Shown here piece by piece: positions 3,566 to 35,368 of a stretch of 55,030 bases of DNA. Numbering within the stretch: the stretch's first letter is position 1; every line of letters begins with the position of its first letter. The DNA is from Candidatus Doudnabacteria bacterium (GTDB taxonomy: Bacteria > Patescibacteriota > JABMPQ01 > JAGQLO01), in the NCBI GenBank assembly GCA_020429185.1, contig JAGQLO010000002.1, forward strand, positions 1 through 55,030, read 5' to 3'. Made by a program: the position numbers and the translations under genes. The notes beneath the pieces were generated by a model. The model searched no databases, was not told the origin of the DNA, and saw only the letters and a list, made by a program, of their open reading frames with translations.

Positions 3566-3640
3566 TGGGGAGTAGCCAAGTGGTAAGGCAATAGGTTCTG
3601 GTCCTATGTACCGGGGGTTCGAATCCCTCCTCCCCAGCCA
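3566..3640 (+). tRNA. tRNA-Gln (anticodon CUG), CCA encoded
   Basis: Hand-folded cloverleaf. Acceptor TGGGGAG/CTCCCCA with U1:A72. D arm GCC..GGC. Anticodon stem ATAGG/CCTAT with loop TTCTGGT (CTG). T arm GGGGG-TTCGAAT-CCCTC. Discriminator G plus CCA. Very similar in layout to E. coli tRNA-Gln2. Confidence 0.93.
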
Positions 3641-3716: not shown

Positions 3717-4823
3717 CTAGAGTGCGGTTGTGTCGAGAAGCCACGTCACGAGAGGAACGAGGCTCTGCAAGCGAGCGTTTCGTTCGCTGTTCGACATGCG
3801 CACTTGCCCTCCAATGTCCGCCGCGATCGTTCCGAAGCAGCGTTCCAGCAGGGCAATGCGCAGCCACCGAGCGCGATGCGTGGCGTCACCTTCTACGCGG
3901 AATGGGTGTAGGTTCCTAACCATGCAATCGATCCACTCCTGCACATCGGTCAGCAGTGTATCGCCGCTACGTCCTTGCCAGTTCGGATGCATGATGCAGC
4001 ATACCCAGATGGCGTACGCCGCTGCGTATCCGGTGGGACGAGGTGCAAGGTGCTCCCAGCTCAGGACGCCCCACTGATGAGACGCAGGCTGATGTTCCGC
4101 AGGGAGCGGCACGAATCGTCGTGGTGACGGAGCGCCGTGTTCCCAGAACATCCGCTTTGCGTCTGTTCCAACGTACCAGCCAATGACGCGGTTTTGCATC
4201 TGCTGCTGAACGTAGGCGTCGAAGTACTGGCTCACGAGGCTCGCACTGCCAGTCTGTTCGCACAGTTGCCACCACCGATCCATGCGGGCCGTGTGCAGCG
4301 CGACTGCCGTCCGTTCCTCTGGTGTCGCAGCACGAAGTGAGGCCATGCCGCCTAGCGTTTGTTGCAGCAGCCACAAGCCCTGAGCGAAGTGTTCTCGCTC
4401 GTTTGCGTGCAGCGTATGATCATGCAGAGGCTCACCGAGATACTCCTCGATGACCCAAGGCCACGCTGCCTGCGTGCCGTAATCGGTGGCGTGTGCCAAG
4501 AGGCGAGGGGCAACGATGGATCTCGTTTCCCTACCGCTCAGGAACTGCCGGGCCACGATCAGGCATTCTGCCGGCTTCTGTAGCCGCTGACGCGGGTCAT
4601 GCCTCAGCTTGAGCACCGCTTGAGCTTGCTGTGTTCCATCAGTGCGTTCAGGCATACTTCCCATGACGCGCGCGATCCGTGGCTTCCCATCGTAGTAGAA
4701 TTGCACGACTGGTTGGCCATCAGGTTCAAAGCCTGCCCGAAGGGCTGCCTCGAACGCTACTTTGAACGCCGGGTCCGTACGGACTCCAGGGTCGTGTTCA
4801 AACAACTCCTCGAACGTTCTCAC
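3717..4823 (-). CDS. Orphan hypothetical protein (GC-rich island A)
   Basis: 368-aa ORF with a GTG start (an in-frame TGA lies 4 codons upstream). One hand-counted line is 65% GC. Shadow ORFs in several frames, typical of high-GC DNA. Own terminator. No motif recognised. Confidence 0.6.
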   Translation of the reverse strand: MRTFEELFEHDPGVRTDPAFKVAFEAALRAGFEPDGQPVVQFYYDGKPRIARVMGSMPERTDGTQQAQAVLKLRHDPRQRLQKPAECLIVARQFLSGRETRSIVAPRLLAHATDYGTQAAWPWVIEEYLGEPLHDHTLHANEREHFAQGLWLLQQTLGGMASLRAATPEERTAVALHTARMDRWWQLCEQTGSASLVSQYFDAYVQQQMQNRVIGWYVGTDAKRMFWEHGAPSPRRFVPLPAEHQPASHQWGVLSWEHLAPRPTGYAAAYAIWVCCIMHPNWQGRSGDTLLTDVQEWIDCMVRNLHPFRVEGDATHRARWLRIALLERCFGTIAADIGGQVRMSNSERNARLQSLVPLVTWLLDTTAL

Positions 4824-7403: not shown

Positions 7404-7646
7404 CCTTCCCATTCCTACACTGTTTACATGTTGCGCTGTCGTGATGGGTCTTTGTATACGGGTATTGCGCGTAATGTAGAGCAGCGTTTGAAGCAACACG
7501 AAGCGGGGAGCGGTTCGAAGTATGTTCGTTCTCGGTTGCCGGTTCGTCTTGTGTTTACTGAGGGCCATCCGGATCGTTCTTCTGCGCAGCGTCGTGAAGC
7601 AGAGTTAAAATCACTTACACGTAGAGAGAAAGAGTCCCTGCTTTAG
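7401..7646 (+). CDS. GIY-YIG nuclease superfamily protein (UPF0213/YhbQ-like)
   Basis: YTVYMLRCRDGSLYTGIARNVEQRLKQH matches the GIY..YIG core of the small stand-alone family. 81 aa. Confidence 0.85.
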   Translation: MPSHSYTVYMLRCRDGSLYTGIARNVEQRLKQHEAGSGSKYVRSRLPVRLVFTEGHPDRSSAQRREAELKSLTRREKESLL

Positions 7647-8047
7647 AAGAATTCTTTTAGAACGATCGAAAGGTTTTCGGGAGTTGTATAGGTTTTGATC
7701 GTGAAGTTTGGGTCACCTTGGATCATCTCAGAAAGTAGGTCTGTGTGTGTGCCTTTATAGACGCAGAGTGTTGGGATCTTCTGTTGGGACGCATGTGCGA
7801 GAAGAAAGCCAACACCAAGACTTGGAGTCGTAACTTCTGCTACCACGACATCGGCCTTGGTTAACCGAGCAAGTTCACGTGTGTGTACCGATTCTTCACC
7901 TGTTTCTCCATAGAGAGAAAGATGCTCTTCAGCGATGTGCTCGTTTAAGACACTTCCGTATCGTCGCAGTTCCTCTACAAGGTGGGCATAGATCGGTTGT
8001 TCCTTTCGACCTCCTCGAATTGAGGCCGCGAAAAAGATGTTCTTCAT
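7643..8047 (-). CDS. Nucleoside 2-deoxyribosyltransferase-like / DNPH1 (Rcl)-like deoxynucleotide N-hydrolase
   Basis: N-terminal IFFAASIRGGRKEQPIYAHLVEELRRYGSVLNEH parallels the DNPH1 motif (YFCGSIRGGR...). About 134 aa, as for the family. Confidence 0.7.
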   Translation of the reverse strand: MKNIFFAASIRGGRKEQPIYAHLVEELRRYGSVLNEHIAEEHLSLYGETGEESVHTRELARLTKADVVVAEVTTPSLGVGFLLAHASQQKIPTLCVYKGTHTDLLSEMIQGDPNFTIKTYTTPENLSIVLKEFF

Positions 8048-8050
8048 AAC

Positions 8051-8839
8051 CTAGCGATCTGGCGAAGTGTTCCAGAGGAGGTCAAATGTTGCTTGTTGCA
8101 TGTCGAAGAGTTGTTGATCTTCTACGAGTAGGACTACGGGTTCACGCTCTTCATACCGTGTGTAGAGTAATCGTCCGTCAAACAATTGAAGGTCGAGGAG
8201 GTAGGCGCTATTTGTAGTTGGTACACGTCGATACTGCGTTGTAGAGTCTTCTGGTCGAGCTTTGTTGAGCCAAGCTTCCGCCTCAGGTGTATTTGCAAGC
8301 AAGACGCGCTCTGAAATGCCTGCGTTAATGCGTTGCTTTCTGATGTCACTTCGTACACGTACTCCTGGACGCGCAGAGCGCGTGATATGTGCGTAGGTTG
8401 AGATTTGTGATGGGTGGGAACGCAACATGTCTTCCAAGGCTGTTCGATATCCGTCTATTCCGTCAAAGAATCGAACTCCTGGTCTGTGTTGCGAAAGGCG
8501 ATACCGGTTTTTAAGCTCAGGAACAAGCTCTTTCACCCGCTCTCCGTTTTGTGCGAGTTCTTGTTGCTTGTTCGAAAACAGATCATAGATGCGCTCGGGA
8601 CTCTCTGCGATGTAAATCGTTCGTCGTGGCTGTTTGATGGTCGTGACAAGTCCGTGCTGAATTAACCCATTCAGAATGTGGTAGAGGAGTGTGCGTGGAA
8701 AGGGAGAGAGGGCTTGTAGCTCTTGAACGGTCACGCGTGTGTGATTGAGCATGAGTCGATACAACTCTGCCTCATTTTCAGAAAGGCCGATCTGCTCTAA
8801 GAGAAGTTGTGCATGCGGCTTTTCTGCGGCTTTTGCCAT
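8051..8839 (-). CDS. TrmB-family transcriptional regulator
   Basis: N-terminal winged HTH (LSENEAELYRLMLNHTRVTVQELQALSPFPRTLLYHILNGLIQHGLV) plus a C-terminal domain. Stop lies 3 nt before the DNPH1-like start, so an operon. Confidence 0.8.
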   Translation of the reverse strand: MAKAAEKPHAQLLLEQIGLSENEAELYRLMLNHTRVTVQELQALSPFPRTLLYHILNGLIQHGLVTTIKQPRRTIYIAESPERIYDLFSNKQQELAQNGERVKELVPELKNRYRLSQHRPGVRFFDGIDGYRTALEDMLRSHPSQISTYAHITRSARPGVRVRSDIRKQRINAGISERVLLANTPEAEAWLNKARPEDSTTQYRRVPTTNSAYLLDLQLFDGRLLYTRYEEREPVVLLVEDQQLFDMQQATFDLLWNTSPDR

Positions 8840-8871
8840 AGTGTCAATTCAATTTAAACTCAAATCGCGAT

Positions 8872-8900
8872 AGTATGTTTTCTTTCTTGTATTAAGTCAA
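8872..8900 (-). promoter_or_regulatory. Candidate promoter of the TrmB-like/DNPH1-like operon
   Basis: Minus strand: TTGACT (8895-8900), 17-nt spacer, CATACT (8872-8877), about 30 nt upstream of the ATG at 8839. Confidence 0.25.
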
Positions 8901-8995
8901 TCTAGTGCATCTATGTGTCAGTATATTTTTTACAACAGTGTTTTTTTGCGTTGTGTCGACATCTTTTGTTCGTCATAGTGGAAGAAATCCCTTCT

Positions 8996-9931
8996 ATGAG
9001 CCATTCCGTCCACGTATTAGATCGTCGTCGTGAAGTGTTGCAACAGGCACCTTCTTTTGTAGCGATTGGAAATGAAATTCTTGCAGGTCTTCGCAGTTCC
9101 GAAGAGCGTATTTCTTCAGCAACTGTCTTGAATCGATTGACGGATTTGAATGCTGACGTTTGGATGTTGTTTCGTGAAATTCGAACATGTTCTGATCGTG
9201 ATGCGTGCAGATTTACCCCTGCGCTTCTTGAGACATTCGAACTTTCTTCGATTCTTGATGCTGAGTGGGGAGTTTCTTCTGTTTCTGCGTTGCACCATCT
9301 GTACCAGAGCGACCAATCGGTTGTTGCTGTAAACGCGCTTGTTGCAAACTGTCTTGCGCGTGCCTTGGAGGCTGCCGAGCAAGATGGTGATGCTGCTCGT
9401 GTTGAACTTCTTTCTGGAGCGGGGTATGGCGCGCGACTCGAACGCGTTTCCTCAATTGCTGATGTTCTTGTTGTGCTAGTTGAACACTGTATCGTCCTTG
9501 CTGATAGCGTTTCTTGTACGCCTGAACAGCTACAAATCCTTCTCGCACTTCGACATCCTGAGGTATTTGAGGAGGCGCAATCCACGTGGAATGTGTCAGA
9601 CTGGGTTCGCTATGCACATCGACACTTTGGAACAGATGTAGCGCAGCGTGGACCCATGTCGTGCTTGCTTTCTCTGCGGTCTGCAATCGATGATGTTCTT
9701 GTCGAATGTCGGAAGCCGGTTGTGACACTCTCAGAGCTGTCAGCTCTTCCGGCAGACGCGACCTTCAACTTTCCCAAGTCGCTTCCGGTTCTTGGGCCAC
9801 TGTTGGCGCAAGTGCTGCTCGAAATCTGCACGGTTGCCAGCGTCTATGCTGTTGATCTTGAGCAGGCTCTTGTTGCGAAACGACTTCGTGCTTCTATTCA
9901 GATTCGAGAAAATCCCTATGCCGTCTCGTAA
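8996..9931 (+). CDS. Hypothetical protein (all-alpha looking), translationally coupled to the next gene
   Basis: ATG at 8996 preceded by GGAAGAA. The 8915 start adds an implausible hydrophobic/Cys-rich leader. The 3' end overlaps the downstream start by 14 nt. Confidence 0.65.
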   Translation: MSHSVHVLDRRREVLQQAPSFVAIGNEILAGLRSSEERISSATVLNRLTDLNADVWMLFREIRTCSDRDACRFTPALLETFELSSILDAEWGVSSVSALHHLYQSDQSVVAVNALVANCLARALEAAEQDGDAARVELLSGAGYGARLERVSSIADVLVVLVEHCIVLADSVSCTPEQLQILLALRHPEVFEEAQSTWNVSDWVRYAHRHFGTDVAQRGPMSCLLSLRSAIDDVLVECRKPVVTLSELSALPADATFNFPKSLPVLGPLLAQVLLEICTVASVYAVDLEQALVAKRLRASIQIRENPYAVS

Positions 9932-10883
9932 CACAAAGGCTGTGATTTCAGAGAAGCGAGCAAGAGATTTTTTTTCGTTTGTGTATGAGCGACAGCGTAT
10001 TTGGTACCGTCGTGAGATTCAAAAACGAGAAGCGCCGTGGACAGATGACGAGCTATTGCAGACATACAAGTTCATCAATATGTACAGAGAGTTGGATCGC
10101 TGCACGAAATACATCATGAACGCTGTTGAGTCCTTGCATGCAGATCGTGAAGCGCTGTTGTTAAACTTCATCTTCTACCGTTTTTTCAACCTAGATCACT
10201 TGTACGAAGATCTTGGTGTTGCTCCGTTCAGGCGACTTGATGCGAAAACGCATACAAGACTTGTTCAAGGATTTTCGCGCATGCGAGAGAAGGGAAAGCC
10301 TCTGTTTAATAATGCGTATGTCATTTCGCCTGGACACGATCGTAGCCCCAAGCATCTCACGATCCTGAAGGGGTTGCGTGTCGTTTCCGCCTCGATTCAA
10401 GGACTCATAAAGCAAATCGACGCAGCAGAAACGCCAGAAGATGCCTTTCTTGAGATACAAACAGTTCCACTTGTCGGTCCGTTTCTTGCGTGTGAAATTT
10501 GGACTGATTTTTCCTATGTAGATGGATTTGTCCAAGGTTGGACTGATAATGACTTCGTGAATGTCGGTCCTGGTGCGAAATGGGGGCTAGAATTATTGGC
10601 AGGTCAAAAACTTACTCGATCTGACCAACAGCGTTTGCTGCAGTGGCTTCATCAGAAGCAAGAAGACGTTTTGCCCGCCATTCACAAAGTTCTCGGTGCC
10701 ACACCTTCCTGGGAAACGATTTCCTATCAGGAAGCAGCTTCAAATACTCCGTTTCTTTCACTTACAAATGTTGAAGGTGCACTGTGTGAGTATCGAAAGT
10801 ATTTAAACCTCTCGAGTGGAAAGGGGAGGAGGCGATACTTTGAGCCCAGTGACCTCCAAGCGCGTGATTCGCTTCGCGCCTAA
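9918..10883 (+). CDS. aGPT-Pplase-like protein (alpha-glutamyl/putrescinyl thymine pyrophosphorylase family, often annotated 'nucleotide kinase domain protein'); tentative
   Basis: The N-terminal block FFSFVYERQRIWYRREIQKREAPWTDDELLQTYKFINMYRELDRCTKYI matches my recollection of the family signature (W..ER..I..r....PWTdD.iL..y.F.NvyRe.DR.T). Assignment is from memory, not from a search. Confidence 0.55.
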   Translation: MPSRNTKAVISEKRARDFFSFVYERQRIWYRREIQKREAPWTDDELLQTYKFINMYRELDRCTKYIMNAVESLHADREALLLNFIFYRFFNLDHLYEDLGVAPFRRLDAKTHTRLVQGFSRMREKGKPLFNNAYVISPGHDRSPKHLTILKGLRVVSASIQGLIKQIDAAETPEDAFLEIQTVPLVGPFLACEIWTDFSYVDGFVQGWTDNDFVNVGPGAKWGLELLAGQKLTRSDQQRLLQWLHQKQEDVLPAIHKVLGATPSWETISYQEAASNTPFLSLTNVEGALCEYRKYLNLSSGKGRRRYFEPSDLQARDSLRA

Positions 10884-10911: not shown

Positions 10912-10959
10912 CGTTGCCGACGTCAGACCTCGTTGGGTTGTGAGTCGTGAAGGTGCAGT

Positions 10960-11634
10960 CTAGTGCGTGATGCAGCTCGCTCCGACGAGCGTCGCACGTA
11001 CGGTGCGGCTGTTCGGATGCATGGGCTGAGCACGCTCACCCGAAGAGAAGGTGCAGTTCCACGCCAGGCGGATGCTACCTACCCGCTCAGGCAAGAGTCG
11101 TTCGATCGCGTTCTTGCCCTCGGCCAAGCTCGAGGACACCACCGCGAAGCTCCAGCGCTTGTGGCGCGGATCCGGCGTGGGGAACGCCTTCAGGACCTTC
11201 GCCGCCTCACTGGTGAGGCAGGTCCAGCCGGGATACATGCCCGGCTGAGGACAAACCGCCAGGCCTCGCTGTCCGCGAACCTTCCAACGGCGCATCAAGC
11301 CCTGTTGGGCCCCGTGTCGCTGGAGTTCTGCGTACGGCAACCCGTTGGAGGGTCGTGTGACCACCTCGGTTTGACCCAGGTAGAGTCGCGCGAGCCCCTC
11401 TTCCTGACTCCGCCACTCGGTGTCTGGGACCCGTACACCAGCCGGAGCGATCACGAAGATGTCCACGACATTGGCAGCGCGGTTTCGTTGTACGAAGTAG
11501 CATGCCCGATCGGCTCGGGCGCGCTTCGAGGCATCACACGGCGCCACCTCGGGCGCCTGCATCTTCTTCACAGACTGGGCCGCGCCGCAGCCCGTGAAGA
11601 TGAGGGCCATCAGGCCCAGAATCATGGTGCGCAT
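10960..11634 (-). CDS. Orphan predicted lipoprotein (GC-rich island B)
   Basis: Start at ATG 11634, preceded by GGAAGGAG 4 nt upstream. Signal plus lipobox MRTMILGLMALIFTGC. 63% GC on one hand-counted line. The 244-aa plus-strand ORF over it looks like a shadow ORF. Confidence 0.65.
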   Translation of the reverse strand: MRTMILGLMALIFTGCGAAQSVKKMQAPEVAPCDASKRARADRACYFVQRNRAANVVDIFVIAPAGVRVPDTEWRSQEEGLARLYLGQTEVVTRPSNGLPYAELQRHGAQQGLMRRWKVRGQRGLAVCPQPGMYPGWTCLTSEAAKVLKAFPTPDPRHKRWSFAVVSSSLAEGKNAIERLLPERVGSIRLAWNCTFSSGERAQPMHPNSRTVRATLVGASCITH

Positions 11635-11798
11635 AGGTCTCCTTCCTGCGCGTCTTCCTGCAGAGCAGGCCGGAAAACATGCCACGTATGCGACTGATTG
11701 TCAATACGTCTGCATTCACCTCGTTCTGTTGTGTTTGTTGAAGGTGATGTCTGCTATGGTTTATGGGCAAGCTTCACACACAACAATCACTACAAGGT

Positions 11799-13187: not shown

Positions 13188-14300
13188 TTGAACCGCTCAT
13201 CGAAATGGAAGTTGCCGATTCAACCAGGATTCTGCTTGTTCCTGGTGCTCGGCATGCCGGTCACGTACGTGTATCTACGTAGTCTGAATCTGTCAGATCC
13301 GGTTTCCGTGCTGGCGTCTGTGATGGTCCCAAGTTTGTATGTGCCTGCGATCATGGTTGTGGGCATGCTCTGGATGGCACTCACCGTGCTGACAGCGCTT
13401 GGTTTGGGGCTGCTGCTTTGGCCGTTGAAGGCATTTCAGATTACTCGGTACAACCTTGCGAACTGGGCGTACTTCATGGGTCCGCTCGGGTTCCGTTGGG
13501 TAATCTTTCCGCTCATGGGCATCACGCTCAAAGTGGATCGGTCCGAGTTGAAGCCGATTCGACGAACTGACTTCGTGAAGTGCTTGTCGATGCATCCATC
13601 TACATGGGGTCTTGGCTCTGTCACGTGGCCGCTCGTGGCGTTTGGGATGCCCAAGCCACTGATGACGGCGATCAAGTCGACGCTGTTTACCCTGCTCCGC
13701 CTGGGAATGCAGATTATCGATGCCGGCTGCGTCGTAGATCGAGAAGATCGCGCTCAAAGTACGGGGGCGATCCGTCGCGGCGCCTCTCGTCTTAAGCGAG
13801 GGGTCGTGACTGTGTACGTCGACGGCCACCGTCCCACAAGGAAGAGGATTACGGATGCTCGTGCGTTCTATGTCGATCGAGGTTGTGAAGATCTTGCTGC
13901 GCAAGTACGTACTGCTCGTCCAAGACCTGCCGGAACGCGCGCCTTGTTGACGCTCAATCCAGGAGCACGTGTAATCGTGTGCTTCGTCACTGCGTCTGGA
14001 TACGATCCTGGACTGACCGGGATCTTCCGAATGGCATTCGGCGGTATGATCTACGTGAAGCTGTTTGACCCGCCAGAGCCTCCTGAAGTTGTGGGTCGAG
14101 ACCGGAGTACTTCGATGGCAGATGTCGCGCAGTGGCTTGATCAAGTCTTTGTGACGACTGGTGGTGCCTGGATCGATGCCATGAAGGGGTGGCATCGGCG
14201 CCATCCGCTTCTCGGGACTCTCATGCCTGCCCCTGCGTCGAAGCATGTTCGCTGGTGGCAACGACCCGCGCAGCTGCTTGGGTGGCGTCCGCGTCCGTAA
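13188..14300 (+). CDS. Orphan membrane protein (GC-rich island C)
   Basis: TTG start 5 nt after GAGGGGGA. 3-4 N-terminal TM helices, then a soluble Arg-rich domain. 63% GC on one hand-counted line. The antisense 418-aa ORF is R/H/S/P-rich and looks like a shadow. Confidence 0.6.
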   Translation: MNRSSKWKLPIQPGFCLFLVLGMPVTYVYLRSLNLSDPVSVLASVMVPSLYVPAIMVVGMLWMALTVLTALGLGLLLWPLKAFQITRYNLANWAYFMGPLGFRWVIFPLMGITLKVDRSELKPIRRTDFVKCLSMHPSTWGLGSVTWPLVAFGMPKPLMTAIKSTLFTLLRLGMQIIDAGCVVDREDRAQSTGAIRRGASRLKRGVVTVYVDGHRPTRKRITDARAFYVDRGCEDLAAQVRTARPRPAGTRALLTLNPGARVIVCFVTASGYDPGLTGIFRMAFGGMIYVKLFDPPEPPEVVGRDRSTSMADVAQWLDQVFVTTGGAWIDAMKGWHRRHPLLGTLMPAPASKHVRWWQRPAQLLGWRPRP

Positions 14301-14434
14301 TGGACGCTCTTTCATGGTGCAAGTATGACCGGCTTGTAACTGATCCGTTGCGCGACGGGCGAAGTGGTCAATCCCGCTGCGTTCTTGCGTGTGATGCAGG
14401 CCCGAATCGACGCCGCGTACGATTTGGTCGGCTA

Positions 14435-14464
14435 GTTCGTTCATCTGAACGGACTTTTTCTTTT
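14435..14464 (+). terminator. Rho-independent terminator of island C
   Basis: GTTCGTTC-atct-GAACGGAC (one G-U pair) followed by TTTTTCTTTT. It lies ~135 nt after the stop, and the GC-rich composition continues up to it. Confidence 0.6.
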
Positions 14465-25752: not shown

Positions 25753-27786
25753 TTACAGGATTGATTCGGGATGTATGTCGACTCGAGCATGCTCTGGAAG
25801 CTCCTTCAGAATCTTCCAGATGGGGTCTTTCTGAGCTGCATTCAACTTGATCAACATATGTATGCGTGTTTTTCCTTTTGAGCGAGCGTGAAAGGCGGGT
25901 GCCGGGCCCAGTAGTTCCACTCCTTCAAGTTGTTCGAGTTGTGCCCGAAGCGCGTGAGCTATCTCATTTGCGTACTTTACTGCTGTCGTTGGTTGCACAT
26001 GTTCGATCAGGACACGCACCAACACCCCGAAAGGGGGATAGCTCCAGTCGTTCCGTTCTTTGAGTTCATGCGCAAAAAATGTGTCGGCATCGTGTGCGGC
26101 AACTGCTTGAATAACGGCATTTTCTGGATCGTATGTTTGAACTACGACACGTCCCGGCGTATCACGTCTTCCTGTGCGACCTACGACCTGTGTCAGCAGC
26201 TGGAAGGTTCGTTCGTGACTTCGCATGTCTGGCATGTGAAGCAGCGTATCGGCATTGATCACGCCTACAAGATCAACATTTGGGAGGTCGAGACCCTTGG
26301 TTACCATCTGAGTTCCCACAAGGACATCAACTTCATGATGTTTTACGGCATCAAAAAGAGCTTCGTGTGCATGTTTTTGTGTTGTAGTGTCGGCATCCAT
26401 GCGCGCAATACGTGCCTCGGGCAACAGCTTCTGCAAATCGAGTTCCACGCGCTCCGTTCCTGTTCCTACGTATTTCACCGAGAGGCTCTTACACTCCGGA
26501 CACGAAGCTGGCGGCACTTCGTGATGATTACAGTGGTGACACATCAAGACATTTTCTTTTCCCACATCCTTCGCCTTTGCCAGATGGTGCGTAAGCGGGA
26601 TCTCACAAGTAGGACAAACTGCCGTCCAACCACATTCTTTACATAAAATCGCGGTCGCTGCTCCACGGCGGTTCAAGAACACAATTGCCTGTTTTCCTTC
26701 TGCAAGCGTTTCTTTCAGCGCTTCTCGCAAGTCCCACGATAAGCTTGATGGATTGTCATGCTCTCGAAACTCTGTACGCATATCAACGATCCGCACCTTC
26801 GGAAATTGGTCTTGAAAGACGCGCTTCCGCATCCGCACAAGATGAACTGGAGATTCGCCAACAAGAGACGTTTCTTTCATTGCAGATGTACGTGCCATGA
26901 GCTCCACATGCGGAGTAGCTGATCCATAGATGAGCTGTGCACCCGCAAGTTCGGCGAGTTTTTCTGCAACCATGCGTCCATCGTAACGTGGAGCTTTTTC
27001 CCACGAGACGTAGCTGCCGTCATGACACTCGTCAACGATCACCAATGCCAGTTGTTTGAATGACGCAAAGAGTGCAGAGCGCGTCCCAAGCACAATGCGA
27101 GCTGTCCCGTCGGCCGCCTTTGTGAGTGCTTCCGTTCGCTGACCCACAGAACGTTTTGAGTGCACCGTCACAAACTGCTCCTGGCCAAATCGCTCACGAA
27201 GTCGCTGCTCCATTTGTGGAATCATGCCGATTTCTGGAACAAGAAAGAGAACCTGCGCTTCTGTATTTGCTGCGATCACACTTGCCATGCGTCGAAAGTA
27301 GACTTCCGTTTTTCCCGCTCCCGTCACGCCCCAAAGGAGAATTGGGGAATGTCCTAATTCACATTCTGTGACTGCCTCACGCTGCTCCTGCGTTAGCGGA
27401 GCGAGCTGAGGATGTTCTGCGCGTTGACGTGTTGTCCTGGTTTTTGTGCGGTTTTGCCTGGAAGGAGGAAGAAACAACTCGAGTGTTTTTCCGAGGGGAG
27501 CTAACCATTCGTGCGAAATCCACCTTGCTAATTCAAATGAAGTGGGAGAAATGGTGTATGGAGCCGTTCCATCGCTTAACGCCTTCAACTTTTGTTTGGG
27601 AATGCTCGTGGTTTCTTGTGTCTCGATGACGACCCCGCGAACCTCTCGACCTCCAAATGGAATCATCACTTCTTGTCCTAGCGAAAGCGCAACATCACCC
27701 GGAACGGTGTACGTAAAGGCTTCCGACGTTTTCTTGGATGTCGGGCGACGTGTTGTTGTGAGAGGAATGACGTTCGCAAAGCTCAT
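25753..27786 (-). CDS. priA: Primosomal protein N' (replication restart helicase PriA)
   Basis: Walker A GVTGAGKTEVY, DECH box, the Cys-rich zinc-binding insert (CKECGWTAVCPTC...CHHCNH...CPEC), and helicase C motifs. Confidence 0.93.
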   Translation of the reverse strand: MSFANVIPLTTTRRPTSKKTSEAFTYTVPGDVALSLGQEVMIPFGGREVRGVVIETQETTSIPKQKLKALSDGTAPYTISPTSFELARWISHEWLAPLGKTLELFLPPSRQNRTKTRTTRQRAEHPQLAPLTQEQREAVTECELGHSPILLWGVTGAGKTEVYFRRMASVIAANTEAQVLFLVPEIGMIPQMEQRLRERFGQEQFVTVHSKRSVGQRTEALTKAADGTARIVLGTRSALFASFKQLALVIVDECHDGSYVSWEKAPRYDGRMVAEKLAELAGAQLIYGSATPHVELMARTSAMKETSLVGESPVHLVRMRKRVFQDQFPKVRIVDMRTEFREHDNPSSLSWDLREALKETLAEGKQAIVFLNRRGAATAILCKECGWTAVCPTCEIPLTHHLAKAKDVGKENVLMCHHCNHHEVPPASCPECKSLSVKYVGTGTERVELDLQKLLPEARIARMDADTTTQKHAHEALFDAVKHHEVDVLVGTQMVTKGLDLPNVDLVGVINADTLLHMPDMRSHERTFQLLTQVVGRTGRRDTPGRVVVQTYDPENAVIQAVAAHDADTFFAHELKERNDWSYPPFGVLVRVLIEHVQPTTAVKYANEIAHALRAQLEQLEGVELLGPAPAFHARSKGKTRIHMLIKLNAAQKDPIWKILKELPEHARVDIHPESIL

Positions 27787-27972
27787 ATGATCTGCAGTTT
27801 ATCCCTTTTTTATGGCTTTTTCTAGTATATTGCGTGTTCGCGAAAAGGACTCCATGAAGCCATTTAGCGGCGACTGCACAAATGCACCTAGAGCAACGCC
27901 GAGCGCGCACTGATGGACCTCTGCGTCCTCCCTTGGCAAGCGACCGCCTGATCCTTTTCGCCACTATGGCGC

Positions 27973-28004
27973 GCCACCCCGGCACTGGGTGGCTTTTTCT
28001 TTTT
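27973..28004 (+). terminator. Rho-independent terminator T1 (left copy of a duplicated terminator)
   Basis: GCCACCC-cggcact-GGGTGGC followed by TTTTTCTTTTT. It lies ~190 nt into the priA upstream region, after a GC-rich segment. Confidence 0.65.
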
Positions 28005-28112
28005 CCTTTGTCCTTAATCCTTGATTTTTTATTGTTTTGTGTTTTGATACGCACACTGTTTGCCAGCCAAAGAAAGGGCACTCAGGTGAAACCGATTCGT
28101 AGGAAGCGGGGC

Positions 28113-28772
28113 ATGCCTCCGTTTCGTGTCGCACTGTTCGGTGGGGCTGTCCGGCTGTACCCCCAGGTGATCGGGGGCGTTGCGAAGGTGGCGCAAGGCC
28201 GGAGATCTGTTCAGCTGCGCATGCCAGTCATGGATCGCACAACTGCAGAGTGTCTGCAGATGACGCAACGTGAGTTGGTAGGCCGAGGGACGAGCGGCGC
28301 ATCGATAGACGCTCTTCTCGCGGTCTCGGTTGTATACCGAGGAGCCGGGGAGGGACCCGTTCCGGTTCGTATGCACAACCTCTCTGAATGTGTCGTGGAA
28401 GGCATGATCGGTAGTCCTCCAGCACAGGCTCAGCTAATGCTCGCACTCACGTCGATGCTACTGGGCGGCTGGAGGGATGCTCCGCTCCCGCTCAATGGCG
28501 AACCGCATCTCGCGGTGTGCGTCACGAGCGATCTGAGCAAGGAACCGTTCTATCCGGCACTCGTGCAGTCAATGTCGCCTTCCGCACCTTCTGATGGCAT
28601 TCTGAAGTCTTCGCAACGATTCCTGATCGTCTCTGACGATGCTGAAACTCAGCAAGCGATCGCCGCACTGCTGCTGACCTCGGACGTCGGCAGCCGTGGC
28701 TTCTTCGAAGGCCCGGATCGTGTTGGTGACGTCATTACAGCGATCTCGAGAATGGCATCGTTGTCGGTCTAG
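28113..28772 (+). CDS. Orphan hypothetical protein (GC-rich island D)
   Basis: ATG 28113 lies 6 nt after AGGAAG (GTG 28086 is an alternative). The track start at 27882 would read through terminator T1 and a T-rich spacer. 62% GC on one hand-counted line. Confidence 0.55.
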   Translation: MPPFRVALFGGAVRLYPQVIGGVAKVAQGRRSVQLRMPVMDRTTAECLQMTQRELVGRGTSGASIDALLAVSVVYRGAGEGPVPVRMHNLSECVVEGMIGSPPAQAQLMLALTSMLLGGWRDAPLPLNGEPHLAVCVTSDLSKEPFYPALVQSMSPSAPSDGILKSSQRFLIVSDDAETQQAIAALLLTSDVGSRGFFEGPDRVGDVITAISRMASLSV

Positions 28773-28796
28773 ATCTGTCTAAGATGTAACCCCGTC

Positions 28797-28826
28797 GCCG
28801 CCCCGGAATGGGTGGCTTTTTCTTTT
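28797..28826 (+). terminator. Rho-independent terminator T2 (right copy)
   Basis: GCCGCCC-cggaat-GGGTGGC (one G-U) followed by TTTTTCTTTTC. Near-identical to T1. Confidence 0.7.
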
Positions 28827-28850
28827 CTCAATATTGCGTACGATAGAGGT

Positions 28851-29399
28851 ATGACATCTCGCATGCTGTTTGCAGCCCTCACATTCGATGCTCGCTCTGT
28901 CGCGAGGCTTTTGACGATACAACATGATCTACCGCTTCCACGCGACATGTTTCGTCTTATTGGAGAGCGAATGCTTCATCTGACACTTGCATATTATGGA
29001 CCCACGCAACCAGAGCGCGAAAAGCGCATTCTTGAAACACTTACAACGATCCGTCGTCACCAGACACCTCAGCTTCGTGTAGATTCTGTTCTCCTTTTGC
29101 CTTCACGAACATCGCCACGTGTTGTCACGCTCGGTGTTGAGGCAACAGAAGCGCTGACGTCACTTAACGAACTTGCGCAAATCGAAGCATCCGACGCATT
29201 TCTTCCGCATGTAACGCTCGCGCGGCTTACCTCTAGCGCCCTTGAAGGACACCCGCTTCGACTTCAGCCGCACATTCGCGCACTAAGCACATACAACATT
29301 GAGCCCTTTTCACTCTACCCAGAAACTGTCACGCTATTTGAAAGCGTCCGTAAGGGAGATACGACATATGTTCCGATTACCGTCTACCCACTCTCATGA
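28851..29399 (+). CDS. thpR: RNA 2',3'-cyclic phosphodiesterase (2H phosphoesterase, ThpR/LigT-like)
   Basis: Two HxT motifs (HLTLAYYG and HVTLARL) at the expected spacing. About 180 aa. Confidence 0.8.
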   Translation: MTSRMLFAALTFDARSVARLLTIQHDLPLPRDMFRLIGERMLHLTLAYYGPTQPEREKRILETLTTIRRHQTPQLRVDSVLLLPSRTSPRVVTLGVEATEALTSLNELAQIEASDAFLPHVTLARLTSSALEGHPLRLQPHIRALSTYNIEPFSLYPETVTLFESVRKGDTTYVPITVYPLS

Positions 29400-31925: not shown

Positions 31926-33245
31926 ATGAAGCTTCATCGTTCCTATGGTTCGATAGGGATTCCCGTAGCCGTTCTTTTTGCGGCTGCCCTTTTTGTTTCT
32001 CCTGCACTTGGACAGACGCAAGATCATGATCATTCGCATGAGGATGAGTATCCATTCGGACACGAAGAAGCAGATATTCTAGAAGCGGCCGGTGGCCCTG
32101 AAAATCTTGAAGAGCTCAACCGTCGCATTGGAGATCAAAAAGAGCGCATTGAAGATATTGAAGGTCGTCAGGAGCAACTCGAGAAAGACATCGAAACAGC
32201 AAAAGCAGAGGGAGCAACACTCCGTACCCATATCGCCGTTCTCGATGGGGAAATTGAACGCACGCAGCTTTCGATCGAGAAAACAGGAGAAGAGATTAGT
32301 CAAACAGACCTGGAAATTCTTAAGGTCGAAGAAGAGATCACGATTCAAGAGTCTGACATCGCCCGTTCCCGAAAGATTTTAGGAGAGTTTATTCGGGAGT
32401 TGTACAAGTCAGACCAGGCTTCGACGCTCGAAATTCTCCTTGCAAATGAGTCGCTTTCCGACTTCCTCGATGCGCGTCACAGCACGCAGGTATTAGAAGA
32501 AGAGACACAACTTGCCCTTACAGAACTCAACGTTCTCCTTGAAGAACTCCAGTGGCAGGAGCGCGTTCTTGAAACAAAACAAGAAACACTTACACAGCTC
32601 AAGGGACGTCTTGACGACGAAAAGGCCATTTTGGACGAAGAAAAGTCTGGTAAGCAAAGCCTTCTCGCTGTAACAGAGGAACAAGAGGCAAACTACGAAG
32701 AGCTTCTTGCACAGGCTCAGACCGAACATCGGAATGCAGAAGCAGAAATTTCTGCTCTCGAATCTGATATCAAAAAGATCATTGAGCAGGAGCGCAACAC
32801 AAATCCGGACTTCAACTTTGTACCTGGAGATGGAACGCTTTCTTGGCCAATCAACCCGATTCATGGCATTTCCGCCTATTTCGATGACCCGGATTACATC
32901 CGTTTCTTTGGAGTCCCACACGGCGCTATCGACGTTCCAACTCCACAAAATACGGCAATTCATGCGCCAGCAGATGCGTACGTTGTGAAATATCGCAATG
33001 CAGGTCTTGGATATAGCTACATCCTCCTGAGTCACGGGAATGGACTTACAACGCTCTACGGACACGTGACAGGCTCCTATGTTACTGCCGGAGATACCGT
33101 GAAAGCGGGCGATGTGATTGGCCTAACAGGAGGAACTCCAGGAACTCCTGGTGCTGGATACCGAACAACAGGGCCACATTTGCACTTCGAAACACGCTTA
33201 AACGGAACGAAAGTCAATCCGCTGAACTACCTTCCGTCGTTGTAA
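31926..33245 (+). CDS. M23-family peptidoglycan DD-metalloendopeptidase with N-terminal coiled coil (EnvC-like architecture)
   Basis: Signal peptide, a long heptad-rich E/K/L region, and C-terminal HGAIDV...LYGH...GPHLHFE motifs of the LytM/M23 family. Confidence 0.85.
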   Translation: MKLHRSYGSIGIPVAVLFAAALFVSPALGQTQDHDHSHEDEYPFGHEEADILEAAGGPENLEELNRRIGDQKERIEDIEGRQEQLEKDIETAKAEGATLRTHIAVLDGEIERTQLSIEKTGEEISQTDLEILKVEEEITIQESDIARSRKILGEFIRELYKSDQASTLEILLANESLSDFLDARHSTQVLEEETQLALTELNVLLEELQWQERVLETKQETLTQLKGRLDDEKAILDEEKSGKQSLLAVTEEQEANYEELLAQAQTEHRNAEAEISALESDIKKIIEQERNTNPDFNFVPGDGTLSWPINPIHGISAYFDDPDYIRFFGVPHGAIDVPTPQNTAIHAPADAYVVKYRNAGLGYSYILLSHGNGLTTLYGHVTGSYVTAGDTVKAGDVIGLTGGTPGTPGAGYRTTGPHLHFETRLNGTKVNPLNYLPSL

Positions 33246-33253
33246 AGACTGAC

Positions 33254-33292
33254 AAAAAAAACATCTAGAAAAATTGACTAGATGTTTTTTTG
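33254..33292. terminator. Bidirectional rho-independent terminator
   Basis: AAAAAAAA, then ACATCTAG-aaaaattga-CTAGATGT (perfect 8 bp), then TTTTTTT. Confidence 0.85.
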
Positions 33293-33344: not shown

Positions 33345-33920
33345 ATGCGCGTACGTACTGTCGTCATTCTTACCGGATTGGCGTCGGCCTTACTGATTCT
33401 GGCCTTCGCGATGTCGCTGTCGATCATGCAGATGCATGACATGCTGAAGTATGCCATGGGCGGCACCGACATCTTGCCGGGCGTGCCGGCCTGCATTCCG
33501 GGGTACAACTCCTGGGACCGGCCATGTATCGTTGATGACGACCGCTCTCAGATGGCTCTGATCACCACTGACGACTTTGGCAGCGAAATTGCCATGATGA
33601 CGCTCGTGGTTCGCATCGATGTCATACATCACGATTCGGACGTAGATCGTGACTTCGTGATCCAGACGATCAACGACGCGTGGAGCCGTGATGAGCGCAG
33701 AAACACTGAACACCCTGTCTGCGTTCTCACTGACGAGATTGCAACGGAGTCATTCGGCGTTGCTGGCACAGAAGTGCATGGGCACGTCTACAGCTTCATC
33801 TGTTCGATGACACTGGATGCCAAGATCTACCCACTGAATGAAGATGGGTCGCAAGGCTCTCAGATGATCGTGCCCCACAGTTGTCCGCCCGAACGCACTG
33901 CCGAGCCGATTAAGATCTAG
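33345..33920 (+). CDS. Orphan secreted/membrane-anchored protein (GC-rich island E)
   Basis: ATG preceded by GGAAGGGGAA. N-terminal hydrophobic signal MRVRTVVILTGLASALLILAFA. Hand-counted lines are 52-63% GC, less extreme than the other islands. Confidence 0.6.
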   Translation: MRVRTVVILTGLASALLILAFAMSLSIMQMHDMLKYAMGGTDILPGVPACIPGYNSWDRPCIVDDDRSQMALITTDDFGSEIAMMTLVVRIDVIHHDSDVDRDFVIQTINDAWSRDERRNTEHPVCVLTDEIATESFGVAGTEVHGHVYSFICSMTLDAKIYPLNEDGSQGSQMIVPHSCPPERTAEPIKI

Positions 33921-33960: not shown

Positions 33961-34267
33961 GTACAGGGAGATTGTTCTACGTATTCAAAACAACATATAA
34001 CAGGGGAGTGTCAATAGTTTGCAAAAGGGTTTCTAAAGCAGGTATGAAGAACGTAGAGAGACAGGCCGGAGTACCGTAAAGCCAACAGGTTGGGAGGAAT
34101 GCATAAAACAAAGTAACAAAAAGAAGGCCAGAAAAATTGCGTAGATATATAGAGCAATGCAGTGAATCAATCTGGATTTCTTCATTTGTAAGCCATTCAT
34201 TGTGTCGTAGAACATACATTGTGCGACATGATTAACCTGGAGCCTAGGTACCTTCCCTTGTCCTGAT

Positions 34268-34297
34268 TTTGTCTCTTTCTCGTTTGTCTCTTTCTCG
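34268..34297 (+). repeat. Perfect tandem duplication of the 15-mer TTTGTCTCTTTCTCG
   Basis: 34268-34282 equals 34283-34297 exactly. Embedded in the pyrimidine-rich non-coding region. Confidence 0.9.
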
Positions 34298-34706
34298 TAC
34301 GATTTCCCTTTGTCCATTTATTCCTTGTAGGCATGCAGCCCGTTCTCTCTTGTCGTACTTCCTCTCTCTTTCTTTTCTGTCCTCCCCTTAGGTTACTCAG
34401 TCCTCTCTGGAGTCATTTTCGTGGAACACTTCTGTGTGTTTCTAAGGACTTCTCTCAAATGCTCATTTTTGATGTTTTCTAGATTCCCTGTTTTTTTGTG
34501 TCTTTTTTTTCTGTTGCGTGTGTTTTGAAAATGTTTGATCGCGTTTCGGCTTTCCTTGTTCTGGAATCTATCTTCAGAAAAATGCACCACTCCCCTGAAA
34601 CCCACTATTTTTGTAACACAATCTTTTTCTCATATGTCAAATAAGGTAGTGTTTCTTGTTGTTTTGCGCTGTTCCGGATAACTCACCAGTCGTTCGCTCT
34701 CTTGCG

Positions 34707-34924
34707 TGTTATACTTCACGTGTTCGTTCAGTTTTGCAACGCGAAAGGGGTGCCATTCCCCTGCTGTACCGCAACCGTGATGCCCTTCGGGGATAAGCCG
34801 GGTCGCCGTTGTTTGACTGCCCCACTGTGAACTCCGCGGAAAACGGAGTAAGGGATATTCCTTTGCACTTCACTTCAGGGCAGTCCTAACGGACTGCTCT
34901 TTCGTTCCCGGGGAGGAACCTATC
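34707..34924 (+). promoter_or_regulatory. Candidate extended -10 promoter plus ~200-nt hairpin-rich 5' leader of island F ORF
   Basis: - TGtTATACT at 34707-34715.
- Local hairpins: AGGGG-tgccatt-CCCCT (34746-34762), CCC-UUCG-GGG (34783-34792), CTCCG-cggaaaa-CGGAG (34832-34848) and AGGGCAGTCC-taac-GGACTGCTCT (34877-34900).
- GTTCC-cgggga-GGAAC (34904-34919) overlaps the SD GGAGGAA. Confidence 0.35.
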
Positions 34925-35368
34925 ATGAACCGACGTGACTTCTTGCGACGGGCTGGCGCTGCCACCAGCTGGCTGTGTCTCGGTGCGCCGGGACTTCTGG
35001 CCGGCTGTGGGGAAGCTCATCCCGGCAACCGAACCGTTTACATCGACGGTTTTGCCCTCAAGGAGTGGCTCATCTTGGAGGCTGGCTCCGAGGGCGGGAC
35101 TGTCGCGACTGTCACATCTCGATCGCTCGACATGCGCTTCTTCCAAGGCGCGTTCGAACAGCGCCGCGATGGTCGTCGCGTTGACACGCTTGTGCTCCGT
35201 GAGCATCTGCGTAGCGATCCCGAACTGCCACGTTCCGCGACCGGCGACTGGCTGTTCGGCATCGTGGGCCGCGATGGCCAGGCCCGGGTCCCGATGACTG
35301 CAGTCGACCACGTCCACAGTGTGGAGGTGCAGGCCGGTGAATCGGTCGTGTGGTACCTCGGCGCTTAA
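34925..35368 (+). CDS. Orphan Tat-signal lipoprotein (GC-rich island F)
   Basis: MNRRDFLRRAGAA (twin-arginine RRxFLR motif), a hydrophobic stretch and the LLAGC lipobox. Strong SD GGAGGAA 6 nt upstream. 67% GC on one hand-counted line. Confidence 0.7.
   Translation: MNRRDFLRRAGAATSWLCLGAPGLLAGCGEAHPGNRTVYIDGFALKEWLILEAGSEGGTVATVTSRSLDMRFFQGAFEQRRDGRRVDTLVLREHLRSDPELPRSATGDWLFGIVGRDGQARVPMTAVDHVHSVEVQAGESVVWYLGA

Follow-up and report, generated by a model that had tools for sequence, protein, structure and literature searches.

Near-identical terminator-like hairpins flank a single-gene presence/absence polymorphism in a Candidatus Doudnabacteria contig

Between the divergent genes priA and ligT on a 55,030-nt contig of a Candidatus Doudnabacteria bacterium (JAGQLO010000002.1, here called the window, meaning the whole stretch of DNA that was analysed), two near-identical copies of a hairpin followed by a T-tract lie 823 nt apart, on either side of a GC-rich orphan open reading frame (ORF) that we call ORF D. 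Comparison of assembled strains shows that these repeats are the exact end points of a presence/absence polymorphism. We consider it probable, though well short of certain, that two paralogous terminators constitute a ~32-bp direct repeat around a single-gene module and serve as the joint at which that module is gained or lost. The core of this finding, an apparent terminator duplicated around an indel, is solid, yet it is consistent with known processes.

The features concerned, in window coordinates, are:

27972–28004, plus strand: direct repeat copy 1, consisting of hairpin 1 and T5CT5, the predicted intrinsic terminator of an upstream gene remnant
28796–28826, plus strand: direct repeat copy 2, consisting of hairpin 2 and T5CT4, predicted to terminate ORF D, with the start codon of ligT 24 nt downstream
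28004–28826, plus strand: present/absent module, 823 nt (placed by the aligner at 27980–28809, 830 nt)
28005–28112, plus strand: T-rich spacer and 5' leader of ORF D, with 28005–28053 strain-variable and 28054–28112 invariant
28113–28772, plus strand: ORF D, a 219-aa orphan with 60% GC and a GC content at third codon positions (GC3) of 0.63, against about 0.45 in native genes
27836–27972, plus strand: left GC-rich segment, whose frame is interrupted by TAG at 27865 and 27889 and closes with TGA at 27949–27951
27813–27835, plus strand: R0, a possible partial third copy of the repeat (TGGCTTTTTCTAGTATATTGCGT), where the strain-variable zone has its left border
25753–27786, minus strand: priA, primosomal helicase (Pfam PriA_3primeBD, DEAD, Helicase_C, PriA_C), the left backbone boundary of the spacer
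28851–29399, plus strand: ligT, 2',3'-cyclic phosphodiesterase/2'-5' RNA ligase family (Pfam LigT_PEase), the right backbone boundary, syntenic with L003, a contig of a distant relative

The stem of hairpin 1 pairs 27973–27979 with 27987–27993 (GCCACCC-CGGCACT-GGGTGGC, with the 7-nt loop CGGCACT) and is followed by its T-tract at 27994–28004, reading TTTTTCTTTTT. Hairpin 2 pairs 28797–28803 with 28810–28816 (GCCGCCC-CGGAAT-GGGTGGC, with one G.T pair and the loop CGGAAT), and its T-tract at 28817–28826 reads TTTTTCTTTT. A gapped alignment of 27972–28003 with 28796–28826 is identical in 29 of 32 columns (CGCCACCCCGGCACTGGGTGGCTTTTTCTTTT against CGCCGCCCCGG-AATGGGTGGCTTTTTCTTTT; E=2e-6 for the local search space), and both copies share an identical 17-nt core, GGGTGGCTTTTTCTTTT. 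In a scan of ~1,350 positions across the contig for direct repeats flanking a 0.6–1 kb segment, this pair received the top score (25, against a 99.9th percentile of 24.3), and its flank score lies above those of all 40 native-gene controls (control maximum 18). A third copy of the full motif is absent from the 55-kb window, with 0 expected in shuffles; as a check for a dispersed repeat of the repetitive extragenic palindrome (REP) or miniature inverted-repeat transposable element (MITE) kind, this amounts to two full copies within the 55 kb covered. Extension of the repeat into the 5' region of ligT (CGCACACTGTTTGCCAGCC against CGCATGCTGTTTGCAGCC) is not significant (p about 0.06–0.11). The duplication is confirmed as far beyond chance, and hairpins 1 and 2 are paralogous, not independent terminators.

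These results bear out much of the initial annotation, which had described two near-identical hairpin-plus-T-tract sites bracketing the island of ORF D, more alike than two independent terminators should be. The positions and sequences hold, save that the second sequence string given was longer than its coordinates by a trivial single letter, as do the T-rich spacer between the copies, the left GC-rich segment, in which there is no conserved ORF, and the assignment of the right copy to the end of the orphan ORF, hairpin 2 beginning 24 nt after its stop codon. A further proposal, that the spacer motif at 28005–28024 resembles 34307–34329 by island F, did not survive: the likeness needs an indel, a gapless pattern matches the island F copy only, and a strain of ~90% identity has the motif altered by one deletion and 5 substitutions, so the link is not supported.

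Strain comparison places the repeats at the ends of the indel. Contigs L007–L011, identical or 98–99% identical to the window, carry both hairpins and ORF D. The same two-copy architecture is present in a 35-kb contig from run X9 that is ~90% identical over the whole region, and in a second strain from X7 (the X7 variant), which spans the 3' end of ORF D, hairpin 2 and ligT. A different allele occurs in L012, a contig from run X16 (an aquatic metagenome) with ~92% identity in ligT: it has a single hairpin and no ORF D, and its order is the left GC-rich segment, GCCACCC-AGCACC-GGGTGGC, TTTTTCTTTT and then CTCAATATTGCGTACGATAGAGATATG, the start of ligT. Projected on the window, the X16 joint runs from 27979 to 28810, skipping 830 nt, with the loop letters AGCACC.

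L012 is the single-copy relative without an intervening ORF that the initial annotation had envisaged. That it is a pristine empty site is not supported: the loop of its one hairpin is a derived form of that of hairpin 1, which points to secondary deletion. The counter-expectation, that relatives would keep both copies around conserved sequence, also holds in part, since X9, the X7 variant and L010 keep both around ORF D. Judged by the joints of runs aligned to the window across this spacer, neither the two alleles within one sample nor a circular form was found, and only X16 shows the joint.

Each copy has the properties of an intrinsic terminator. Hairpins 1 and 2 are the two best sites of a terminator scan, with minimum free energies of −13.8 and −14.0 kcal/mol and the 7-bp hairpin as the dominant structure at each site; hairpin 1 begins 21 nt past the TGA that closes the remnant frame, a distance from the stop codon close to that of hairpin 2. 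Between the window and X9 none of the 48 positions in the stems and T-tracts of both hairpins has changed, against ~19% difference in adjacent non-coding DNA (P about 5e-5 for the conservation of stems and tails). The loops did change, by 3–4 differences between the window and X9 or X16: that of hairpin 1 from CGGCACT to AGCACC in X9 (2 substitutions, 1 deletion), and that of hairpin 2 from CGGAAT to TGGAAT (28804 C>T, the sole change), the X7 variant being unchanged there. No compensatory base pairs were found between strains, so that the signal is one of conservation and not of covariation. Unchanged stems and tails with changing loops are the pattern that selection on terminator hairpins predicts. 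To judge from sequence, both hairpins are ordinary Rho-independent terminators, with a 7-bp GC-rich stem, a 6–7 nt loop and a run of ~10 T containing one C, placed 21–24 nt past stop codons; they differ from the usual case in that two near-identical copies, 823 nt apart, form the ends of a gene presence/absence polymorphism.

The initial annotation had also proposed a motif search, and in genomes and metagenomes this returned unrelated, generic terminators: the same stem and tail, with any loop, occur as one copy each in 57 unrelated metagenome contigs (GC 34–70%), and a near-identical hairpin follows a gene in one Chitinophagales metagenome-assembled genome. Since 57 unrelated single-copy loci share stem and tail, the hairpin is a generic terminator solution and not a mobile-element signature, and the idea of a special motif falls away. 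The same loci, in which this form arose independently, are what favours a history in which the two hairpins here are independent terminators made alike by convergence. We regard that history as scarcely credible: those loci lack both this loop and the 5' CGCC context, whereas the two copies here match in 29 of 32 columns with loop positions included, within 823 nt and with no other full copy in 55 kb, and the hairpin sites are the exact ends of the strain indel.

ORF D itself behaves as a gene. Two diverged strains show 44 differences in it, of which 26 affect the third position of a codon (p=4e-4); 22 codon changes are synonymous and 14 non-synonymous, and the sole indel of X9 inside the ORF is a net 3-nt deletion that keeps the frame. 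Because of this third-position bias, synonymous excess and in-frame indel, comparative evidence shows ORF D to be a real coding gene, and by every search it is an orphan. It has no match in Pfam, NCBIfam, PHROGs or PADLOC, no homologue in PDB and none in IMG/VR viral loci, and it found only itself both among 5.8 billion non-redundant protein sequences (word-prefiltered) and in an exhaustive phmmer search of 1.84 billion cluster representatives (~15 billion proteins). A single-sequence AlphaFold2 model has a predicted local distance difference test (pLDDT) score of 31.8, too low for use. An alternative GTG start lies in the leader at 28086, with AAAGGG before it.

A longer gene was considered at this locus, beginning at ATG 27882 and encoding 296 aa, in which hairpin 1 and the T-rich spacer would encode a signal-anchor helix (WLFLFPLSLILDFLLFCVLIRTLF) and hairpin 1 would be no terminator. 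In the window no stop interrupts the frame between 27882 and 28772, three contigs in ENA assemblies are annotated with the protein (P0125, 296 aa), and the translated T-tract is hydrophobic. Any in-frame T-rich DNA gives Phe and Leu, however, and L012 has the segment without an ORF; the ATG is GTG in X9 and GCG in a variant from X4; and upstream of 28086 the X9 frame contains stop codons and a net −1 frameshift. The extended ORF was rejected as contradicted by the X9 stops and frameshift, and we hold this reading to be very improbable.

The left GC-rich segment suggests where hairpin 1 came from. In L012 the frame ending at the TGA (window 27949–27951) is open to the contig end (...LHGLPEAIQRRLHQCTWSNAERALVDLGVLPWKATA*), has a GC3 of about 83%, the highest of the three frames, and stops 21 nt before the hairpin. 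The frame is open in X9 as well; one stop interrupts it in the X4 variant, and two, both TAG, in the window. Probably an older GC-rich gene has decayed here to its 3' end, with hairpin 1 as its terminator. The priA-proximal contig of X16 departs from the window after 27833 and continues into at least 400 nt of unlike DNA, and L012 begins with 24 unlike letters before 27847; because both X16 contigs run into unlike DNA, X16 has more DNA between 27833 and 27847, which is plausibly the rest of the left-segment gene. Another idea in the initial annotation, two tandem modules of the same cassette type, also has support: the left segment of L012 reads as an open, GC3-rich C-terminus, while the corresponding frame in the window has two TAG stops.

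R0 lies exactly where strains start diverging, and X9 and the X4 variant begin to differ from the window at 27829. It resembles the 3' half of the repeat (21 of 27 positions against 28813–28839 with a 4-nt gap; blastn E=0.095, not significant alone) and overlaps a −10-like TAGTAT at 27823–27828. A third copy at this position would fit successive insertions at one site. Three independent assemblies (L005, L006 and L009) end or begin at 27855–27859, the start of a zone with ~20% strain difference, and these breaks are probably due to strain heterogeneity. Two blocks, 27923–27964 (42 nt) and 28054–28112 (59 nt), have no difference between the window and X9, with neighbouring non-coding DNA ~19% different; a recombination mosaic could account for them, as could selection acting on regulatory elements or RNA.

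A functional RNA would account for the left segment in another way, either as a small RNA transcribed together with hairpin 1 from a promoter at ~27823 or as an attenuator or riboswitch leader controlling the gene downstream. The −10-like TAGTAT is conserved between strains; 27923–27964 shows 0 differences from X9 and 1 from X16 while the 5' part differs at 20%; and the unit stands directly upstream of a gene in both alleles, ORF D in the window and ligT in X16. The segment's fold is nevertheless no better than that of shuffles (z-score −0.59), a search of 27700–28900 at E≤10 returned no Rfam family, and a predicted helix (27840–27849/27952–27961) is disrupted in X9 and not kept in L012, so that the conserved, structured aptamer of a riboswitch or terminator leader is not seen. 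A high-GC3 frame with a stop 21 nt before the hairpin suits a coding origin, and a functional RNA seems to us improbable.

Returning to two paralogous terminators around a single-gene module, the loops give a direction to the polymorphism. Every strain has CGGAAT or TGGAAT as the loop of hairpin 2, to which the hairpin 1 loop of the window, CGGCACT, is still similar. Because the copies were identical at duplication and the window loop resembles hairpin 2, the AGCACC of X9 and X16 would be a derived state of hairpin 1, and X16, which carries it, would descend from a two-copy ancestor. Its single copy consists of the 5' stem and loop of hairpin 1 joined to the downstream flank of hairpin 2. From these loop states we favour secondary deletion, and not a never-filled site, as the origin of the X16 allele.

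In the history that we propose, hairpin 1 would be the terminator left by an older, now truncated GC-rich gene, while hairpin 2 would terminate ORF D and insulate ligT. Recombination or replication slippage inside GGGTGGCTTTTTCTTTT could then remove the module precisely, leaving one chimeric terminator as in X16. As for the origin of the pair, our best guess is either that the ORF D module inserted directly behind a resident terminator and duplicated ~30 nt of target in doing so, or that a single crossover occurred with an incoming molecule bearing the same terminator. The outcome resembles short-direct-repeat indels in flexible islets, in which a strain-variable single-gene segment lies between backbone genes and two- and one-repeat alleles both exist. 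It differs in that the repeat has the look of a working palindromic terminator, which deletion would regenerate intact, and in that the cargo is a GC-rich gene without detectable homologue.

Several points weigh against this history. Four single-nucleotide polymorphisms in ligT unite the X7 variant with X16 against the window (W) and X9, but the resulting four-strain tree, ((X7v,X16),(W,X9)), is unrooted, and one gain (with the root on the X16 branch) is as parsimonious as one loss. The argument from the loops fails if hairpin 2 gene-converted hairpin 1 of the window. The two difference-free blocks could be recombination mosaics and not products of selection. No homologue was found for the peptide encoded by the putative upstream gene, which was not recovered at full length. 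Finally, no mechanism for the original duplication is visible, as neither a recombinase nor a transposase nor a terminal inverted repeat is present in the window or module.

Known mobile systems offer partial parallels. Some 45 ORFs spanning the 55 kb were scanned with Pfam, and none proved to be an integrase, a tyrosine or serine recombinase, a transposase or a reverse transcriptase. Terminal inverted repeats are absent from the module, and Rfam searches (the whole window at the gathering threshold, in addition to that at E≤10) returned only tRNA-Gln and noise. The initial annotation had suggested an attL/attR-style duplication around an ~825-bp insert; the repeat does bound an 823–830 bp segment, composed of spacer and leader, ORF D and terminator, that is present or absent between strains, but the integrase, transposase and terminal inverted repeats are missing. 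Relative to the attL and attR sites of integrative elements, a 17-nt identical core is present and an integrase is absent from module and window. Target-site duplications of insertion sequences (IS) and transposons are short, 2–14 bp. Here the duplication is ~32 bp, and ORF D has no family match.

The module is like an integron cassette, or a XerCD dif/pdif module, in being a recombinase-free single-ORF unit of 0.7–0.8 kb that ends in a hairpin-forming site, and by analogy in its apparent tandem arrangement behind a fixed boundary and a precise loss that would leave one site. It is unlike them in its 20–21 nt hairpins with a T-run, where attC sites measure 57–141 nt with RYYYAAC/GTTRRRY cores, a pair not found here. 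There is no IntI or other recombinase within 55 kb and no attI, the neighbour is priA, other islands carry different hairpins or repeats, and no common 28-bp dif-like site occurs. Class C group II introns and IS200/IS605-type elements likewise insert right behind a terminator stem-loop and T-run, but they do not duplicate the hairpin, and here there are no intron RNA domains in Rfam searches and no TnpA or TnpB ORF, nor is ORF D a reverse transcriptase. A literature search found no description of this arrangement.

ORF D lies in one of several GC-rich islands in the window, which has 50% GC overall; the islands reach 57–65% GC, and their ORFs have GC3 values of 0.62–0.77, against about 0.45 in native genes, and lack family matches. 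This wider pattern raises an active cassette system as a rival explanation, in which the hairpin and its TTTTTCTTTT tail would form an attC-like attachment site for a recombinase encoded elsewhere in the genome, promoter-poor single-gene cassettes would be inserted and excised behind terminators, and R0, hairpin 1 and hairpin 2 would be the junctions of a two-cassette array. The 10-mer TTTTTCTTTT occurs four times in 55 kb against 0.32 expected, always on the plus strand and immediately past a hairpin, each time at the 3' end of a GC-rich island (C once, D twice, F once). Strains also exchange DNA at other hairpins: 14313–14461 is replaced by 701 nt in X9, with the right edge inside such a tail and a break of X16 at the same place (14457–14462), and a terminator hairpin at 33239–33287 is replaced by 720 nt in X16, so that the variable pieces are similar in size (701, 720 and 823 nt). 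By strict criteria, hairpins with long T-runs stand in the window only beside islands or variable sites, and 22 kb of L003 contain none. The sequence TGGCTTTTTCT is shared by R0, itself at the left border of the variable zone, and island B is bracketed by a 35-nt direct repeat:

10960–11634, minus strand: island B, a predicted lipoprotein, 65% GC, present in X9 and X16

The two copies of this repeat, 10927–10961 and 11718–11752, are identical at 27 of 35 positions, above all 40 native-gene flanks.

Against such a system stands the absence of any recombinase, transposase or reverse transcriptase gene from the window. Islands C and F carry hairpins of different sequence, and the repeats on either side of island B are not hairpins. 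Flank similarity over six islands is not significantly above that of native genes (Mann–Whitney p=0.11), alignments naturally resume in low-complexity T-runs, and stem plus tail is a common terminator form in unrelated organisms. Among the runs aligned across this spacer the X16 joint stands alone, with no circular or both-allele evidence in any one sample. We consider the attachment-site explanation unlikely. Doubtful, too, is its broader form, an undescribed system of Candidate Phyla Radiation (CPR) bacteria in which GC-rich orphan single-ORF modules of ~0.7–0.8 kb, with terminators as landing pads and cassette ends, would be dispersed, integron-like, over many intergenic sites. The island pattern is suggestive and keeps a terminator-linked cassette mechanism alive at low probability. 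Separately, the proposition that all GC-rich islands are flanked by repeats was tried and rejected, as only D and B exceed native controls, E and F are weak, and A and C show none (overall p=0.11).

Two terminators around a single gene that is gained or lost, the reading we prefer, also fit the genomic context of the spacer. Beyond ligT follow wecG and then gltX. The nearest relatives of PriA outside the species have 55% and 47% identity, and no close relatives were found in GTDB genomes when sought via priA and the island A protein. L003, a 56-kb contig of the 47% relative, has the order pyrG, L27, S49 peptidase, M23 peptidase, gltX, wecG, ligT, priA, with 9 bp between the start codons of ligT and priA against 1,064 bp in the window. 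Because L003 has the same order with 9 bp, the 1,064-bp spacer is an addition in the lineage of the window; island F and its neighbours are likewise missing from L003. In the 55% relative, a contig (L004, 1–217) carries a different GC-rich minus-strand ORF (MKAHLVVSMCGGRHW...) upstream of priA in place of ligT, and the position upstream of priA may thus be variable in that lineage too. DNA of the window is found at low depth in activated-sludge and wastewater metagenomes.

The locus provides a population-level natural example of a tiny-genome, uncultivated bacterium gaining or shedding single orphan genes between essential backbone genes. As the flanking repeat looks like a working terminator, loss of the gene would restore an intact terminator, and expression of the neighbour would be insulated in both states. 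GC-rich orphan genes carry most of the canonical terminators on the contig, and strains swap 0.7–0.8 kb pieces at terminator hairpins at at least 3 sites. If the pattern is genome-wide, it would represent a terminator-linked route of gene acquisition in CPR bacteria and would bear on the origin of their many orphan genes.

Some of the other variable sites have layouts of their own. At the end of island C (14291–14464), a hairpin at 14291–14307 overlies the stop codon, followed by a GC-rich piece of ~130 nt and a hairpin at 14434–14455 with TTTTTCTTTT; this 3' layout mirrors the arrangement of remnant plus terminator on the left side of ORF D, and breaks in X16 coincide with the edges of the X9 replacement. 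The hairpin at 33239–33287 is bidirectional and terminator-like (CATCTAGAAAAATTGACTAGATG with A/T runs) and lies just past the M23 peptidase gene, and a degenerate copy of its region occurs at 34110–34146, beyond a 191-aa orphan gene (33345–33920, GC3 0.69). A CT-rich non-coding stretch of ~700 nt (34200–34900) precedes island F (34925–35368), whose ORF has a twin-arginine signal and a lipobox; within the stretch, X16 swaps 34279–34400 for 106 other nt, and 34326–34420 bears a degenerate likeness to the island F terminator.

Elsewhere in the window, tRNA-Gln (3566–3640) adjoins GC-rich island A (3717–4823, minus strand), a 368-aa orphan. Genes for a nucleoside 2-deoxyribosyltransferase, a TrmB-like regulator and a 5-hmdU DNA kinase helical-domain protein (PF18723, E=3e-49) cluster at 7643–10883; they belong to the phage-type genes of thymidine hypermodification, here in the setting of a bacterial chromosome. 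Matches to sigma-70-type promoters number below shuffles in each third of the window (12 against 15.5, 3 against 15.4 and 7 against 15.2), and the organism probably uses a different promoter consensus.

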